Shown in pieces: positions 3,049-59,718 of a DNA stretch of 64,000 nucleotides. The translations under genes and the position numbers were made by a program. This DNA comes from a virus (Duplodnaviria > Caudoviricetes). The stretch spans positions 32,001 to 96,000 of the IMG/VR virus record IMGVR_UViG_3300036546_000172, one strand, 5' to 3'. Position 1 is the stretch's first letter, and every line of letters starts with the position of its first letter. Under the pieces are notes generated by a model. The model did not search any database. It saw only the letters and a list, made by a program, of their open reading frames with translations, and was not told where the DNA came from.

Positions 3049-3593
3049 TGCTAGATCCAAATATTTTCCCTAGTGAATTTGATGCATTTATGAAGAGAAA
3101 AGTTTCTCTCAGTGACAGCTTTTTACCTCTTTATGATGGAGATTTTATATTGCCAGCGTTTGGAGATTATCCGTCTGCGTTTGCTAGTGCATATGATATA
3201 TATTCCTATTCTGGAGAAGTTTTAGGTGCTACACACGAACCTGCTCATGATCCAGGTATAATCGAAGCATTCATGAGATCATATAGCACCTCGGTCACAG
3301 AATTTGCTCAAGCACTTGCAGACTTTTGGTCTACGGTTCTTATTGTTCCTGGCGCTCCTATGCACGGTGGAGTTTCAGTTCAATCTGTAGTTAATGATGC
3401 ATCAGTTCAAGTAGGAGCATTTGAATCAGCAATTTTAGCCAGTATCACAACGGAATTAACTACTCCGGTCTTTATCCAGTTAATAAATAATATTGAAGCT
3501 ATTGCATTGCCTTCCGTAACTTGGACGGTAACAGAGATGATCCCAGTTGGATCATCATTAGTACCAACTCCATTTTTAGAGAAAGTTTTCTAA
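3048..3593 (+). CDS. Hypothetical baseplate-associated protein
   Basis: 181 aa ORF coupled by TAATG overlaps to gp5 and gp25. Confidence 0.55.
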   Translation: MLDPNIFPSEFDAFMKRKVSLSDSFLPLYDGDFILPAFGDYPSAFASAYDIYSYSGEVLGATHEPAHDPGIIEAFMRSYSTSVTEFAQALADFWSTVLIVPGAPMHGGVSVQSVVNDASVQVGAFESAILASITTELTTPVFIQLINNIEAIALPSVTWTVTEMIPVGSSLVPTPFLEKVF

Positions 3594-39400: not shown

Positions 39401-40285
39401 ATGAGTAATATCAAATCGCTGTACAAATCAAAACACATTAAGAACATTGAGCCTTGGATCGTTGAGAATATCCAATACGAGACTATCATGGGATCTCAAG
39501 CCTACGGAGTCTCCTCTGATAACAGCGATCTGGATCTGTACTCATTCACTGTACCTCCTCGTGGAATAGTGTTTCCTCACACTCAAGGGTTCATATCGGG
39601 GTTTGGCAAGCAACCTCCAAATTTCAAAGTGTATCAACAGCACCACATTGAGACAGATGGCGTGTCTCACGATATCAACGTGTACAACATCGTCAGCTAT
39701 TTCCAGTTATTGATGGACAATAATCCCAATCTGATTGACAGTCTCTTTACACGCACACAGTCTGTGACTCATTCAACCAAGATTGGCAACATGGTGAAGG
39801 ATCAACGTCGTATTTTCCTGCATAAGGGAGCATGGCACAGGTTTAAAGGCTATGCTTACGCTCAGATGAAGAAGCTCAGGAGCAAACACGTTGAACCTGA
39901 GAGTAAGCGCTTTGAATCCATCATGAAATATGGCTACGATGTCAAGCACGCGTATCACGTAGTTCGTCTCCTGAATGAGGTTGAGCAGATCTTGATGTAC
40001 GGTGATATTGATCTCATGCAGAACAACGACCAGTTAAAAGATGTGCGTAATGGTGAATGGTCACTGGAGTTCTTGGAACAATATTTCGAGACCAAGGAGG
40101 TTGCGCTTGAGAAGTGTTATCACCAATCGGAGTTGCAGAAATATCCAGACGAGACTAGAATTAAGCAATTATTACTAGATTGTCTGGAAGAATTCTATGG
40201 CCAGGTTAGCGAAGAGGAGGTGCGTTTAGTGTCTGAGCACGAACGCGCCATTGAAGAGATTAAACAGATCATGAGGAAGCTATAA
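39401..40285 (+). CDS. Pol-beta superfamily nucleotidyltransferase (RlaP / PF10127-like)
   Basis: GSQAYG....SDLD, NPN.I..LF, F.GYA..Q, GYD.K.A.H..RLL, L..VR.GE. Confidence 0.8.
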   Translation: MSNIKSLYKSKHIKNIEPWIVENIQYETIMGSQAYGVSSDNSDLDLYSFTVPPRGIVFPHTQGFISGFGKQPPNFKVYQQHHIETDGVSHDINVYNIVSYFQLLMDNNPNLIDSLFTRTQSVTHSTKIGNMVKDQRRIFLHKGAWHRFKGYAYAQMKKLRSKHVEPESKRFESIMKYGYDVKHAYHVVRLLNEVEQILMYGDIDLMQNNDQLKDVRNGEWSLEFLEQYFETKEVALEKCYHQSELQKYPDETRIKQLLLDCLEEFYGQVSEEEVRLVSEHERAIEEIKQIMRKL

Positions 40286-43429: not shown

Positions 43430-43898
43430 TTTTAAGAGCTGCGATGAGCTGGTTGAACACTTTGATAACCACACAAAGTACCTAATTGACAGCGACACAT
43501 ACGACATGATCCGTTTTGCATGGGAAGAGGCAAGCTCTGCGGTGCGGGACGAGATTAAAGCCGATCTTGAGCAGACTCAAGCAAGGGTGGCGGAGTTGGA
43601 GTCGATTCTTATCAGGCAACAATGTGAATATGTGAAAGGCCCTGACGGCTTTGAGACATGGAGAGATGCCGCGGTTTCGGAGAGGGCTTGGAGGGTATCA
43701 ATGAAGCCTCTTAATGAAGTTGTAGACCTTGCGCGCGAAGCGATGGACATATTCACCGGACCAAACATGAACGAAAGAAAGCTTTGCGCCGAACTGGTCA
43801 GACTGGATGAATTTTACACCAGAGAGGCTCAGCGCCTCCGTCAACAAGCCGACGAACTAGAGCAACACCCGGATGGTGATGTGCGTCGGAAATGCTAA
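43422..43898 (+). CDS. Hypothetical island protein
   Basis: MSD start after a linker repeat, ARVAELE, EAQRLRQQA. Confidence 0.6.
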   Translation: MSDFKSCDELVEHFDNHTKYLIDSDTYDMIRFAWEEASSAVRDEIKADLEQTQARVAELESILIRQQCEYVKGPDGFETWRDAAVSERAWRVSMKPLNEVVDLAREAMDIFTGPNMNERKLCAELVRLDEFYTREAQRLRQQADELEQHPDGDVRRKC

Positions 43899-43990
43899 CC
43901 TTTCCGAGAAAGACATTTACTACTTTGCTTAGAGATGTCACCAATATCTACCGCCAAGTCGATGAAATTGAAAAATATGAGAGGTTAAAA

Positions 43991-44497
43991 ATGAGTTGTA
44001 TTTGGCTGTGTTCTGATTGGCATCTCGGGCATCAAGGTATATCAAAGAAGTTCCGTACTCAGTTCAGTTCTGATGAAGATCACGATCAATTTTTCGTTGA
44101 TGCTTATCACCAAGCTGGTGTCAAGAAACGAGACATAATCTTTATGCTCGGTGATATGGTGATCACTCAACGTGGATTCGATAGCTTGAGTCAGCTACAC
44201 GGTGACAAGAGGATCATTCTAGGTAATCACGACCTGGAACGAGGGTGCAGTCTTGAACAGTTTCAACAACACTTCACTCAAATTCACGGAGCTTTGAAAT
44301 ACAAAGAGTTCTGGATGACTCATATTCCTATTCATCCGAACGAGCTCTTTGGTAAGATTAATCTTCACGGACACGTACACAACAAAACGGTTCAGGATGA
44401 GCGGTATATTAATCTTTGCCCTGAATTCTTAATGGAAGAGTTCGGAACACCGATCATCAAACTACAAGATCTTAGACAATGGTTGAGAACAAGATGA
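43991..44497 (+). CDS. Calcineurin-like metallophosphoesterase
   Basis: SDWHLGH, LGD, GNHD, HIP, NLHGHVH; ATG 43991 follows GAGG. Confidence 0.88.
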   Translation: MSCIWLCSDWHLGHQGISKKFRTQFSSDEDHDQFFVDAYHQAGVKKRDIIFMLGDMVITQRGFDSLSQLHGDKRIILGNHDLERGCSLEQFQQHFTQIHGALKYKEFWMTHIPIHPNELFGKINLHGHVHNKTVQDERYINLCPEFLMEEFGTPIIKLQDLRQWLRTR

Positions 44498-44961
44498 GAA
44501 TTTGGATAGATACAGAGTTCAACGGGTTTGGCGGTAAGCTGTTATCCATTGCGCTCGTGGCAGAAGATCAGTCGTATTTGTATGAAGTACTTCCTGCTGC
44601 TATGGAAGAATGTGTTGAATGGGTACAAGAGAACGTGCTGCCTCAGATTAAAGCCGATCCTGAAGGAGGTGAAATAGAATTCTATACTCCGTTGATCACA
44701 GTTAAACACAAGATCTCTGAATTCTTATGCAAATATGACCACGTAGAGATCATTGCTGACTGGCCAGATGATATTCGATATCTGATGGAGCTGCTCATCG
44801 TTGGTCCTGGACTGGCTGTGTCTACTCCTACTATAATGAATCTAACCATAGATCGATCATTGAACGGTCTGTCAATGCTGCCTCATCATGCCTATTTCGA
44901 TGCTGTAGGTAACATGATGCAACAACTGAATAACGAATACGGAACAAAACCTTATGTGTGA
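44494..44961 (+). CDS. DEDDh 3'-5' exonuclease-like protein
   Basis: IDTEF, LLSIALV, WV.ENVLP, ADW..D, HHA..DA. Confidence 0.8.
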   Translation: MRIWIDTEFNGFGGKLLSIALVAEDQSYLYEVLPAAMEECVEWVQENVLPQIKADPEGGEIEFYTPLITVKHKISEFLCKYDHVEIIADWPDDIRYLMELLIVGPGLAVSTPTIMNLTIDRSLNGLSMLPHHAYFDAVGNMMQQLNNEYGTKPYV

Positions 44962-46027
44962 TAGGATCTTAGTACTTGGAGATATTCATATTGGAGCTAG
45001 AAACAGCTCGCACGTATTTCGTGAATTGTTTCGCAGCTACTTTCGAGATTGTGTGTTTCCATCAGTCAAAGAACGTAAGATTAAGAAGATCATTCAACTG
45101 GGCGACTTTTTCGACAATCGCAACAGCGTGTCTCTGCATGACATCGACTATGTGTTGCGTGAATTCTTGCCTCAGCTTGAAGAGACAGGCGCACACATGT
45201 ACGTTCTGGCTGGCAATCACGACGTAGCCTTCAAGAACACCAACCGCGTACATTCTCTGTCTATTCTCGAAACATCTCCTAGTGTCACGATTGTTCATGA
45301 CCATGTAGAATCGATCCGTACTGAGTCTAAGACGTTCGTTCTATGTCCGTGGATCAACAACGAGAATGAAGAGCAGTTGATGGAGGACTTGAAGGCGTAC
45401 GCTACGAAGAATCACATCTTGTGTGGTCACTTTGAGTTCGAAGGCATGCGCATGAACAAGACATCCAAACCATGCGAACATGGACTTAATCCAAAAGACT
45501 TTAAGAAATACGATCGTGTGATCAGCGGTCACTTCCATCATCCGTCTACGTATGGTAATGTAAGCTACATGGGATCGGTGTTTCATCTGACGTGGCAAGA
45601 TCACGACGATTCCAAGTTCATCTACATCTATGATACTAACACCGATGAGTTCGAACCGATTGAGAATCCGTACTCGCTCTATACTCAGATTGATTATCAC
45701 GAGTGTAACATGACCGACGATGAGCTGTCTGATGAATGTCGTGGTAAGTTTGTACGCATCATCATAGATCAAGAGTACAAGCGCGTGGAGCTCAAGGATC
45801 TGATTCATCGTATTGAGAAGGTCAAGCCTCTGTCTGTAGATGTCATTGATAACACGATCCTAGATGTACAAGTTAATGATACCTCAGAGGTTGAACTATC
45901 TGACTCTAAGGATATCAAAGACTACGTGGATGAGTTCTTAAAAGACTCTGAGAGTAAAAGCACTCTGGTATCTATGTTCGATGAGATCTATACTGAAGCT
46001 CAGCAACGTATGAAAGAGATTGAATAA
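44954..46027 (+). CDS. gp47: Recombination nuclease gp47 (Mre11-like)
   Basis: GD.H.G.R, LGD.FDNR, GNHD, PWIN, GHFE, SGHFH. Confidence 0.93.
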   Translation: MCDRILVLGDIHIGARNSSHVFRELFRSYFRDCVFPSVKERKIKKIIQLGDFFDNRNSVSLHDIDYVLREFLPQLEETGAHMYVLAGNHDVAFKNTNRVHSLSILETSPSVTIVHDHVESIRTESKTFVLCPWINNENEEQLMEDLKAYATKNHILCGHFEFEGMRMNKTSKPCEHGLNPKDFKKYDRVISGHFHHPSTYGNVSYMGSVFHLTWQDHDDSKFIYIYDTNTDEFEPIENPYSLYTQIDYHECNMTDDELSDECRGKFVRIIIDQEYKRVELKDLIHRIEKVKPLSVDVIDNTILDVQVNDTSEVELSDSKDIKDYVDEFLKDSESKSTLVSMFDEIYTEAQQRMKEIE

Positions 46028-47794: not shown

Positions 47795-49051
47795 ATGGAT
47801 TCTTATAGACAAGCTCTTCAGTACTGCCGAGATGGTTTGTTAAAAATGACAGACGATGGCGAGGGTCATCGTCTGTTCTGCTACACCAAGTCTTGCTTTT
47901 TTGGTAAAGATACATGGGACGATGTCACTAAGACTCATCGCGGCAAGCTGTACTATGAGAACAAGCCCGTTAATCACCCATTCACTAAGATCTTTAACGT
48001 AGATGAAGTTACAGAGACTGAGCATAACCTCATCTACAATCGCATGCAGAATGAACCATACGAGATCCTAGATAAGGCTAATGGACATTTGTTCATAGTA
48101 TCGATGTTCCAGGACTCCAAAGGTGAGCAGCACGTGGTATTCTCTACCAAGGGCTCAATGCCGAACCCCGAGAACGATCTACTGAATGATGACATTCGTA
48201 TATTCGCTCACAAATACTCAGAACAACTGGATAAGCTGTGTTTTGTGATGCCTAATGTTACATTGATGTTTGAGGCTATCGTCGCTCATGATAAGCACTC
48301 AATGTATGATCTGCAGGTCGAGCAGTATGGATCTGAAAACGACTTTGTTCTGCTCGGTGCTGCAATCAACCTAGGACGCGAGCACATCGACCTCGGTAAC
48401 GAAGATGAGTTAAAGAACATCCAGCATTCAGAGCACAATACAACTACACTGGCTGACTATCCGTGGGTAGAAAGTGATTGGCACCAATTGTTGAAGCTAT
48501 CACATTTCATCGGTTGTCCTGTTGTCCATTGCTACGATTTCATTGAAGGCTCACCTGAGACCTGGAAAGAGCATACTGATCGTGAAGGTTATGTGATTCG
48601 TTTCCTGACAGATAACGCAAGAGTTAAGATCAAGACTACTGAATATTGGAAGAATCGATTCAAAAAAGATCTGACACCTGAGGTATTATTATCTACGTTC
48701 GCTAAAGGCGGAGCTGCATTGATGCAGGAGAAGATCGCTAACAAATGCATTGCTAAAATCGAAAGTTATTTCATCTCATGGTACATGGATGATCTGATTC
48801 GATGGAAATCTGAAGTGCTGCCATACCTGAAACAGAAGAACAATCAATTGTCATCTAAAGATCGCAAATGGCTGTTCACTGAATCCTACTTCTGCAGTTT
48901 CCAGCGTCAATACATTGCAGCGATAGTAGATGGTAAGAATCTGGATATCACACAGAACAAAACTCTGCGTCAGATGTTCGTAGATGATGTAGCTCTTGAG
49001 CGTGCAGATATCAAACAATCGCTTGAACAGATTGTAGTGAATGCTCTATAA
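47795..49051 (+). CDS. RNA ligase (Rnl1-like)
   Basis: RG...PF.KIFN, motif I DKANG, STKG, TLMFE, EGYVI, VKIKT..Y. Confidence 0.82.
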   Translation: MDSYRQALQYCRDGLLKMTDDGEGHRLFCYTKSCFFGKDTWDDVTKTHRGKLYYENKPVNHPFTKIFNVDEVTETEHNLIYNRMQNEPYEILDKANGHLFIVSMFQDSKGEQHVVFSTKGSMPNPENDLLNDDIRIFAHKYSEQLDKLCFVMPNVTLMFEAIVAHDKHSMYDLQVEQYGSENDFVLLGAAINLGREHIDLGNEDELKNIQHSEHNTTTLADYPWVESDWHQLLKLSHFIGCPVVHCYDFIEGSPETWKEHTDREGYVIRFLTDNARVKIKTTEYWKNRFKKDLTPEVLLSTFAKGGAALMQEKIANKCIAKIESYFISWYMDDLIRWKSEVLPYLKQKNNQLSSKDRKWLFTESYFCSFQRQYIAAIVDGKNLDITQNKTLRQMFVDDVALERADIKQSLEQIVVNAL

Positions 49052-49054
49052 TGA

Positions 49055-49579
49055 ATGAAACGTGAGGACATAACTATGATATTTTTAATGAGAGCTACCA
49101 CTTGTTCAGGCAAGAGCACATTCATTGCTCAAAACTTTCCTAATTCAAATGCAGTATTCTCATCAGATGATTTCCGTGAGATGCTGACCGGTGATAGGAC
49201 AAATCAGCAGTTCAATAAGCGAGTGTTTGAGATCATGCATTCGATTATTGACTTCCGTCTGCACAATCGAGCTGAATACACAGTGTATGATGCTACTAAT
49301 CTGCGCATTCGTGATGCTTCAATGATGATCGAATTGTCCAAGAAACATCAGATTCCATTGACGGTGATTTCAATCGAACCTCCTACACTGGATGAACTGA
49401 TCAGACGCAACCGCATTCGTAATAACGAGACTGGATTCAACGTACCTCAGAATGTGATAGAGAAGCATCTTCATCGATACTATGAGTGTATGGATCCTTT
49501 CTTGGAGGAGAGTAAAAATAATCTTCTGTTCAAGTTTATTGAGATAAACCAAGATCATGAGGTGATTCGTGAAGTATAG
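49055..49579 (+). CDS. Polynucleotide kinase-like P-loop protein
   Basis: CSGKST, SSDDFR, YDATN, RN..R...VP..VI. Confidence 0.82.
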   Translation: MKREDITMIFLMRATTCSGKSTFIAQNFPNSNAVFSSDDFREMLTGDRTNQQFNKRVFEIMHSIIDFRLHNRAEYTVYDATNLRIRDASMMIELSKKHQIPLTVISIEPPTLDELIRRNRIRNNETGFNVPQNVIEKHLHRYYECMDPFLEESKNNLLFKFIEINQDHEVIREV

Positions 49580-50330
49580 TCCAATACATTCACAATCTGT
49601 GACTATGGGTCATCACATACGCACGTTTGGTCAAGATGTGTGGATTATTGGTGACGTACATGGATGCTATCGTGAGTTTAGAGATCTGTGTCATCAGATC
49701 AGACGTCTAAATTCACAAGCTATCATTATACAACTGGGTGATCTCATCGATCGAGGACCTGGGATGTCTCAAGTGTTTGATGTGATTGAAGATTATAATG
49801 TGATATGCACCATTGGAAACCATGAGTTGAACTTTCTGATGGAGCATGATGGAGTCAAGCGATGCAACAGCAAAGCACGACACATCAATCATGATCGCAT
49901 GGCTTCATACTCCATCGGTGAACAAGATCGTATCTTAACTCACCTGCGAAGCATGTATAATGTCATAGTGGTAGATATTGAGCTCAAAACAGGTGAAATC
50001 GAGCGCTGGTGTCTATCACACGCTCCGGTCAAAGGGTATGAGCAGGCCTGGCCTTTCCATGGTCTGCAATCACGCAATGCCTGGACCTATTGCTCACGCA
50101 CAGAGCCTTATGATGAGACTTACCTACACAGTGATGACAGAGCCGCTCACGGACATCAGCATTGGAACTATATTCCAATTGAGGATCAGATTGCTCAGAT
50201 ATTAGCTGGTGAGAGAAAAACATTGAACGTGGATGGAGGCTGTGTGTACGGCGGTGAACTAGCGGCTGTTAATCTCAACAGTCTATTTGCATTAAAAATC
50301 GGTGCATATGAGAGTTACTGGAAACAGTGA
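49569..50330 (+). CDS. Metallophosphoesterase (Pnkp phosphatase-like)
   Basis: IGDVHGC, LGDLIDRGP, GNHE, HGH, VDGGCVYGGEL. Confidence 0.88.
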   Translation: MKYSPIHSQSVTMGHHIRTFGQDVWIIGDVHGCYREFRDLCHQIRRLNSQAIIIQLGDLIDRGPGMSQVFDVIEDYNVICTIGNHELNFLMEHDGVKRCNSKARHINHDRMASYSIGEQDRILTHLRSMYNVIVVDIELKTGEIERWCLSHAPVKGYEQAWPFHGLQSRNAWTYCSRTEPYDETYLHSDDRAAHGHQHWNYIPIEDQIAQILAGERKTLNVDGGCVYGGELAAVNLNSLFALKIGAYESYWKQ

Positions 50331-58078: not shown

Positions 58079-58162
58079 GGGGGAGTGGTGAAATGGCAGA
58101 CACAGCGGTGTTAAGTACCGTCGCCTTAGCGCGTGTGGGTTCGAATCCCACCTCCCCCACCA
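58079..58162 (+). tRNA. tRNA-Leu(TAA)
   Basis: GGGGGAG/CTCCCCC acceptor, long variable arm, loop GT-TAA-GT, CCA. Confidence 0.85.
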
Positions 58163-58196
58163 AACAACTCCCGATAGCTCAGCTGGATAGAGCAAC

Positions 58197-58324
58197 AGAG
58201 ACAACAAAGCCTCGCGCTAGCTCAATTGGATAGAGCACCTCCCTTCTTTTGTGCATTCGTGTAGTGTACAAAAGAAGGAGGTGGTTACTGGTTCGACTCC
58301 AGTGCGCGAGGCTTTGTTGTCTTT
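58197..58324 (+). ncRNA. tRNA-Arg(TCT)-derived RNA with a 27-nt anticodon-loop insert and extended acceptor helix
   Basis: Intact D and T arms; insert 58248-58274 pairs with the anticodon; 19-bp terminal helix; no CCA. Confidence 0.8.
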
Positions 58325-58377
58325 AAAAATACAAAATATGATTCCCACTCGGGAATCCAATATAAGATAGGTGACAT

Positions 58378-59630: not shown

Positions 59631-59718
59631 TCCCAGGTAGACAAACTGGTAAAGTCGCCGGACTGTTAATCCGGTTTCCGAAAGGATATTGTAGGTTCGA
59701 AGCCTACCCTGGGAGCCA
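59631..59718 (+). tRNA. tRNA-Asn(GTT) with long variable arm
   Basis: TCCCAGG/CCTGGGA acceptor, G73, loop CT-GTT-AA, CCA. Confidence 0.88.

Follow-up and report, generated by a model that had tools for sequence, protein, structure and literature searches.

We describe a tRNA-Arg(UCU) gene of a 138-kb phage (an IMG/VR record), in which a 27-nt hairpin insert sits directly 3′ of U36 and complementary flanks close the two ends of the tRNA. The element is, with little doubt, a member of an RNA gene family that has been kept by selection. Its membership in this family and its nesting in a disrupted older tRNA-Arg gene go beyond the original prediction for this locus. Here after, positions are those of the window, the whole stretch of 64,000 nt that was analyzed, and the features are collected in Table 1.

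The body of the tRNA (58211-58311) was reported neither by ARAGORN at its default setting nor by the Rfam tRNA model at E ≤ 1. When introns were allowed (ARAGORN -i), tRNA-Arg(tct) was called at 58211-58312 with the insert at 58248-58274. A normal acceptor stem (CTCGCGC/GCGCGAG), a D arm with A20, an anticodon stem (CCTCC/GGAGG) and a T arm (ACTGG/CCAGT) were all found, as originally claimed, and the cloverleaf of the ARAGORN -i model comprises the 7-bp acceptor, D, anticodon and T arms, U8, A14, G18G19 and a GTTCGA T loop. Arginyl-tRNA synthetase (ArgRS) of E. coli uses A20, C35, U36 and A or G73 as identity elements, and A20 (D loop AATTGGATA), C35, U36 and G73 are present here. The 7-nt anticodon loop is broken by 27 nt in the gene as encoded and is restored only on removal of the insert, which gives back the canonical loop that had been foreseen. 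The spliced sequence matches 754 phage records contiguously across the junction with 80-88% identity, and among the matches listed, those annotated at that site are tRNA-Arg.

The predicted fold of 58197-58324 (128 nt) has a free energy of -74 kcal/mol (z = -11.5), and none of 200 shuffled sequences was equally stable. In this fold C32 is bulged, and U33-A38, U34-A37, C35-G and U36-A open a helix of 14 bp capped by a 5-nt loop, so that all three anticodon bases are paired and UCU is wholly buried, in agreement with the anticodon-burying hairpin of ~14 bp in the original prediction. Two G.U pairs lie within this helix, indicating that it pairs only at the level of the + strand RNA. At the other end of the molecule, leader and trailer are joined by 12 Watson-Crick pairs, one G.U and one A-U, and these 14 bp and the acceptor stem form a continuous helix of 21 bp, which is a perfect inverted repeat over 19 bp. 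G73 is followed by CTT, and the encoded CCA carried by 10 of the 10 other tRNAs of the array is absent; the proposed extension of the acceptor by complementary flanks and the lack of CCA were thus both recovered. The 321 nt spanning the element recur with 100% identity in one Logan and two JGI assemblies, all of them independent, and therefore the element is not an assembly artefact.

Table 1. Features of the cassette, the neighboring tRNA sequences and the RNA-end enzymes of the phage (positions in the window except where another record is named)
Feature	Position	Strand	Basis
tRNA-Leu(UAA) with encoded CCA; upstream neighbor, anchor of the ancestral Leu-Arg pair	58079..58162	+	ARAGORN, Rfam
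5′ remnant of resident tRNA-Arg(UCU), positions 1 to ~28	58168..58196	+	identity with relative L299
Leader arm of end-closing helix	58197..58210	+	pairs with 58311-58324
Exon 1 of tRNA-Arg(UCU), positions 1-36	58211..58247	+	ARAGORN -i; spliced-sequence matches
Hairpin insert (mini-intron), 27 nt, between U36 and A37	58248..58274	+	ARAGORN -i; clean 27-nt gap against insert-free tRNA-Arg genes
Exon 2 of tRNA-Arg(UCU), positions 37-73, without CCA after it	58275..58311	+	
Trailer arm: G73, C74 and 12 more bases	58311..58324	+	paired with leader
A-rich 15-nt spacer between cassette helix and 3′ remnant	58325..58339	+	sequence; missing in relative L299
3′ remnant of resident tRNA-Arg: end of T loop, 3′ strands of T stem and acceptor, discriminator, CCA	58340..58360	+	
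Rnl1-like RNA ligase, candidate sealing enzyme	47795..49051	+	Pfam RNA_lig_T4_1, 44 bits
AAA_33 kinase (49055-49579) and metallophosphoesterase (49569-50330), end-healing candidates	49055..50330	+	Pfam
RlaP-family nucleotidyltransferase, possible 3′-end repair	39401..40285	+	Pfam PF10127, 64 bits
Two further metallophosphoesterases	43892-44497, 44954-46027		
Rnl2-like ligase, outside the window	G000 122718-123287		

The tRNA array also contains a perfect inverted repeat of 24 bp (60295-60318/60656-60679), which encloses 337 nt and ends 5 nt before tRNA-Met. The enclosed sequence gave a sub-threshold match to the manA RNA (RF01745), scoring 33 bits where the gathering score is 55. The repeat is a possible second long stem for RNA processing, which would fit a model in which the array is processed at such stems. 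The segment 59724-59810 scored 59.8 bits with the Rfam tRNA-Sec model (gathering score 47) and received no ARAGORN call; it may be a class II tRNA, perhaps tRNA-Ser, or a real tRNA-Sec-like gene. The tRNA-Asn(GTT) at 59631-59718 (88 nt) is unusual for Asn in its long variable arm.

Relatives in Aeromonas phages and covariation

IMG/VR was searched with a pattern that constrained only the tRNA-Arg body and allowed any 25-55 nt from CTTCT to the T loop. The search gave three more tRNA-Arg(UCU) genes in which an insert immediately follows U36, in Aeromonas phage PX29 (L049, 26 nt) and in the records L050 (26 nt) and L053 (38 nt), along with L051, which is of a different design, and several genes with long variable arms. 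These three genes share with the window the bulged C32 and an insert ending in AG, which pairs with C35-U36, and the remaining insert sequence differs among them; the window also has the U33-A38 and U34-A37 pairs characteristic of the family. BLAST over the insert and its flanks gave homologues in AsFcp_1/2, Ah1, avDM12-TAAL, Aeh1 and phiWae14. Both extensions, namely the insert and the leader/trailer helix, are present in the cultured T4-like Aeromonas phages PX29, Ah1, Aeh1 and phiWae14, and phiAS5 carries an insert-free allele at the same locus with the same flanks. The length of the insert is 27 nt in the window and 26-28 nt among five other members, and it reaches 38 nt in L053. Above the bulged C32, the helix amounts to 14-15 bp-equivalents in six of the seven members, with unrelated sequences.

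In the Aeromonas-phage genes, a conserved leader, AGAACACATTG, pairs with the trailer CAATGTGTTTT, and CCA is likewise missing. The window has the same arrangement, with a helix starting from -1/-2 and a G(-2)-C74 pair. This helix, found in the window and the Aeromonas group, is weak or absent in L050 and L053, and the two extensions are separable: in L050 the insert is not accompanied by a clear leader/trailer helix, and the converse holds for phiAS5, which has only the helix. No leader/trailer helix was found in the ordinary tRNA-Arg genes of T4, Klebsiella MJ359, Morganella MP1 and Rtp.

When the insert of the window was compared with that of Ah1, about 18 of the 28 positions were alike by hand count, including TGTGC and TTC in the 5′ arm and GTACA and AAG in the 3′ arm. 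The leader of the window equals that of the Aeromonas phages at 8 of the 12 positions, and for each of the other four the trailer carries a compensating change. From these likenesses, which cover short stretches, the cassette of the window is probably homologous to the Aeromonas one. The exons were uninformative as a clue to the source of the cassette because their identity is 72-76% to all the candidates; at 72-76% to the Aeromonas genes and 76% to the resident gene described below, they are no closer to the former.

The insert-bearing gene is labeled tRNA-Lys in the GenBank record of PX29 (GU396103, 101142-101281) and tRNA-Glu(UUC) in that of Aeh1, and it is unannotated in Ah1, phiAS5 and phiWae14. 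The 105-nt "tRNA-Glu UUC" of Aeh1 (AY266303; L292 313-417) is an insert-bearing tRNA-Arg(UCU), and the tRNA list of the 2006 Aeh1 paper has Glu UUC without Arg UCU. If these tRNAs are functional, the present reading would correct the long-standing misannotations as tRNA-Glu in Aeh1 and as tRNA-Lys in PX29.

A scan of IMG/VR with a 44-mer for the insert-bearing gene gave nothing, and both metagenome scans were empty. Apart from the three identical assemblies, no near relative with the cassette was found in exact and gapped pattern scans, and none of 26 IMG/VR tRNA-Arg genes with the same anticodon arm had an insert. The related complete phage G001 gave no homologue of the tRNA-Arg, and its two "intron" calls by ARAGORN were poor models. 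Two tRNA-like elements were noted in G001 (L033 2770-2850 and 3653-3748): one of them ends in CCA and has no ARAGORN call, and the other, for which ARAGORN gave only a poor intron-bearing tRNA-Val, combines a closing stem of 8 bp and a good T arm with an aberrant center.

Inserts of other kinds were encountered as well. Chitinophagales and other Bacteroidota MAGs (L180, L197-L201, L207, L261) have chromosomal tRNA-Arg(TCT) genes with a conserved GC-rich palindrome of 19-20 nt (CCTGCCTGCCGGCAGGCAGG) directly after A38, a design different from the phage hairpin. In the Deinococcales MAGs L191 and L217, tRNA-Arg(TCT)-like genes carry inserts of 36-37 nt after U36, with no pairing between insert and anticodon. 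In the 8.6-kb viral contig L051, two tRNAs have short loop inserts, 19 nt long in Arg(TCT) and 21 nt long in Ile(TAT) (2695-2787, 3247-3344), again of another design.

Covariation was analyzed in an alignment of the window with PX29, Ah1, Aeh1 and phiWae14. RNAalifold recovered the whole architecture with 49 consensus pairs, 26 of which had changes on both sides. Paired cells accounted for 95.1%, compared with 41-50% when the partners were slid by 1-3 columns, and the 26 covarying pairs compare with 3-9 in these slid controls; none of 500 shuffles reached any of the observed covariation measures. Of the 20 pairs in each extended helix, 11 covaried in that of leader/trailer and acceptor and 9 in that of anticodon stem and insert, and all four cloverleaf arms show compensatory changes across the family. 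The loop bases C32-U36 and A37-A38 (CUUCU..AA) and the G(-2)-C74 pair are invariant. G.U pairs occur in the helices of both extensions, indicating that selection is placed on the + strand RNA. It had been argued at the outset that two complementary extensions are hard to explain by decay, and a check of homologues for compensatory changes had been suggested; both helices are kept by such changes in other phages, which favors a selected RNA structure.

The resident tRNA-Arg gene around the cassette

The cassette is flanked by the two ends of another tRNA-Arg gene. The 5′ remnant starts five bases past tRNA-Leu(UAA) and contains the acceptor strand CTCCCGA, the D arm and the start of the anticodon stem. 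The 3′ remnant reads GATT-CCCAC-TCGGGAA-T-CCA, and its acceptor strand is complementary to CTCCCGA at 6 of the 7 positions. The relative L299, an ENA contig with an 85%-identical homologue of the neighbor protein P0001 (58378-58656), has Leu(UAA), the same AACAA spacer as the window and then an intact, insert-free tRNA-Arg(UCU) with CCA. This intact gene is identical to the window at every position through GAGCAA (58168-58195), and its segment GAATCCTACTCGGGAGGCCA agrees with the 3′ remnant at about 16 of the 20 positions, counted by eye. In another relative, L298 (83%), an intact tRNA-Arg(UCU) precedes the homologous neighbor gene. The order of Leu(UAA), a short spacer and Arg(UCU) is also seen in Klebsiella and Morganella phages, as it is in L299.

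Because the gene is intact in L299 and L298 where the window keeps only its two ends, the cassette replaced the middle of the resident gene. The comparison shows an exchange in which about 144 nt (58196-58339) took the place of positions ~29-56 of the resident tRNA-Arg(UCU). Judged from these alignments, the segment 58197-58339 is a horizontally acquired cassette. Its nesting, together with the preserved pre-insertion allele, shows that tRNA cassettes of this kind are transferred between unrelated phages and replace genes already in place.

No other copy of either arm or of the insert was found elsewhere in the phage genome, no target-site duplication was found at the cassette and no endonuclease gene is adjacent to it. 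GIY-YIG and HNH_3 are absent from the phage, and its two HNH matches are distant, the nearest being about 6.4 kb from the cassette. The overwriting of the resident gene suggests some DNA-level drive, and we speculate that the insert may act as a shield against a nuclease targeting tRNA-Arg genes. The flanks of the Aeromonas cassette were also considered as tRNA remnants, which was rejected; they are the hairpin ending gene 57B and a terminator-like hairpin. In the window, the 3′ remnant also folds at 58340-58357 as a 7-bp hairpin, which scored as terminator-like on the minus strand (tail ATATTTTGTA), and no convincing minus-strand gene ending at this hairpin was found.

Proposed maturation and alternative readings

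On balance, we think that the element matures to a working tRNA. The best reading, which we hold tentatively, is that of an intron-bearing pre-tRNA that is cut by a nuclease specific for double-stranded RNA, probably RNase III of the host, before it is ligated and completed with CCA. In this scheme the primary transcript would be an inactive, rod-like precursor, both extended helices of which would be cut with a 2-nt 3′ stagger. The cuts in the anticodon arm, after U36 and before A37, would release the hairpin and leave a 3′-OH and a 5′-phosphate, and the phage Rnl1-like ligase would seal the exons to give the normal CUUCUAA loop. The cuts at the acceptor end would leave a 5′-phosphate on C1 and a 3′ end at G73-C74, which a CCA-adding enzyme would finish, and the mature product would read AGA/AGG.

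RNase III requires near-continuous double-stranded RNA of ~20 bp or more and gives products with a 2-nt 3′ stagger, 5′-phosphate and 3′-OH, and such ends are direct substrates for Rnl1-type ligases. The extended helices are of 21 bp and 19-20 bp, each about two turns long. In the predicted fold of the anticodon arm, 58275 has as its partner 58245, two nucleotides short of the end of exon 1 at 58247, which leaves a 2-nt 3′ overhang; at the acceptor end 58211 pairs with 58310, and the same stagger would put the end of the tRNA at C74 (58312). A 2-nt 3′ stagger in a continuous helix points to ends of the RNase III type, for which a ligase would be enough. Since the stagger follows from the position of the insert at 36/37 and the continuous helix, it is one coincidence common to the relatives and not several independent ones. 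The activation by phage kinase and ligase originally put forward is possible, but the geometry of the boundaries suggests that the ligase only would be needed. RNase III combined with the ligase may be the maturation route, and we regard this part as plausible but doubtful.

No RNase III, EndA (PF01974) or class II CCA enzyme was found in the phage, and the proposed route would therefore need host enzymes for the cutting and the CCA addition. The kinase and phosphoesterase genes adjoin the Rnl1-like ligase gene. PX29 also has Rnl1 and Rnl2, and the complete relative G001, in which the cassette tRNA is missing, has no Rnl1; this co-occurrence (n = 2) is weak evidence because both ligases are common in large phages.

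The pre-tRNA may instead be functional and be processed by another route, an unlikely alternative in our estimate, in which the helix opens and its ends are trimmed by RNase P and by RNase Z/BN or exonucleases, another endonuclease of the host or the phage excises the hairpin leaving 2′,3′-cyclic phosphate and 5′-OH, and kinase and phosphoesterase heal the ends for sealing by Rnl1. A complete heal-and-seal set does adjoin the ligase in this phage, the -1/73 mismatch in PX29 and Ah1 leaves room for RNase P, and the repair of a broken anticodon loop by T4 Pnkp/Rnl1 is an established precedent. This route leaves the continuous helix and its constant height unexplained, however, and an EndA-type splicing endonuclease is not encoded by the phage; in addition, we know of no anticodon nuclease that cuts at 36/37.

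Of the two readings originally proposed, a decoy and a latent pre-tRNA, the latter is favored because the exons are kept as a full Arg cloverleaf, the loop is invariant, phiAS5 has the insert-free allele and the resident gene was replaced; the decoy gained no positive support. An RNA that is never spliced and does not decode, and that serves as a decoy or sponge by showing the tRNA elbow with its ends hidden, for instance to an anticodon nuclease, ArgRS, RNase III or a different defense protein that binds tRNA, would agree with the pairing of both functional ends in the fold, with the covariation that keeps the structure and with the proposal that phage tRNAs counter tRNA-targeting defenses (PMC10264068). 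We consider it improbable, given that the anticodon-loop bases are invariant beyond mere pairing, that the Arg identity features and all the cloverleaf arms are kept, that phiAS5 has an insert-free orthologue and that the element replaced a resident decoding tRNA-Arg in a phage where AGA and AGG make up 33% of the Arg codons. There is similarly little to be expected of selfish or decaying DNA, in which the palindromes would be DNA-level features, either inverted repeats at the termini or an insert disrupting the target site of a homing endonuclease that cuts tRNA genes, and the tRNA would be inactive or dispensable. The destruction of the resident gene by the cassette, the polymorphic presence of the insert and the action of the homing endonuclease SegB in a tRNA cluster of T4 (PMC2330249) speak for such an origin. 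Against it, the G.U pairs in the two helices can form only in + strand RNA, compensatory changes have preserved exons and hairpin in phages that are distant from each other, and target-site duplication, other genomic copies and an adjacent endonuclease gene are all missing, as stated above.

Taken to its full extent, the preferred reading of a pre-tRNA that is cut, ligated and completed with CCA would amount to protein-only tRNA splicing in bacteria and phages, where RNase III measures and cuts a hairpin mini-intron, a phage Rnl1-type ligase rejoins the exons, and a cassette knocks out the resident tRNA-Arg(UCU) and supplies a nuclease-proof replacement. We offer this complete scenario as a conjecture that is rather unlikely to hold in all its parts. 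If true, it would give phage Rnl1 and Rnl2 ligases a routine role beyond damage repair, with a constitutive substrate for the long-puzzling Rnl1-type ligase, and would explain the "enigmatic" phage tRNA introns.

Comparison with known systems

To our knowledge, tRNA splicing in bacteria and phages is thought to be limited to self-splicing group I introns. A 27-nt hairpin cannot self-splice, so that an enzyme-driven route of cutting and joining would be required if these tRNAs are functional. No description of hairpin introns in phage tRNA-Arg, of tRNA splicing by RNase III or of tRNA introns in Aeh1 was found in the papers searched. What is new here is the homology of the cassette of a distant 138-kb phage with those of Aeromonas phages, the covariation including that of the leader/trailer helix, and the nesting with its pre-insertion allele.

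Group I introns also interrupt the anticodon loop of bacterial-type tRNA genes, and their ribozyme core takes about 200 nt or more. This class was rejected for the insert, because 27 nt is too small for such a core and no Rfam intron or ribozyme matched. The bulge-helix-bulge (BHB) introns of archaeal and eukaryal tRNAs lie at 37/38, with two 3-nt bulges separated by a 4-bp helix, and are cut by EndA/TSEN. They resemble the cassette in being short, protein-dependent introns by the anticodon, with exons joined by an RNA ligase, a step that is proposed for the cassette. A BHB intron was nevertheless rejected, since the insert lies at 36/37 in a continuous helix in which only C32 is bulged, the 3-nt bulges are absent and the phage has no EndA. 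The archaeal tRNA-Arg(UCU) introns found for comparison all begin after A37.

Homing by T4 SegB in a tRNA gene cluster (PMC2330249) is similar in that it replaces segments of the tRNA cluster between related phages, as a foreign cassette took the place of part of a tRNA gene here, and differs in that the cassette has no linked endonuclease gene. The nearest published observation is that of the "enigmatic" tRNA introns of Lak megaphages, the splicing route of which was left unexplained (Devoto et al. 2019, PMC6784885). Like the cassette insert, these are small ribozyme-free inserts in the anticodon loops of phage tRNAs and are polymorphic between related phages. One Lak intron is predicted to be tRNA-shaped, whereas the insert of the cassette folds as a simple hairpin, extending the anticodon stem and pairing with the anticodon; unlike the Lak introns, the cassette also has a leader/trailer helix and is located inside a disrupted resident gene.

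As to the mechanism, the nearest analogues are the intervening sequences of rRNA and the repair by T4 Pnkp/Rnl1. RNase III excises intervening sequences from bacterial 23S and 16S rRNA, the fragments of which function without being rejoined. The intervening sequences are likewise stem-loops grafted on a normal helix, the end of which would be restored by a nuclease acting on double-stranded RNA, but a tRNA with a cut anticodon loop has to be religated, and in the cassette the part of RNase III is inferred only. T4 Pnkp and Rnl1 reportedly repair tRNA-Lys cut at 33/34 by the host nuclease PrrC. There, as is proposed here, an Rnl1-type phage ligase seals a break in an anticodon loop, and the present phage has a set of ligase, kinase and phosphoesterase; the T4 system repairs damage, whereas the break in the cassette tRNA would be a programmed step in the maturation of the phage's own tRNA.
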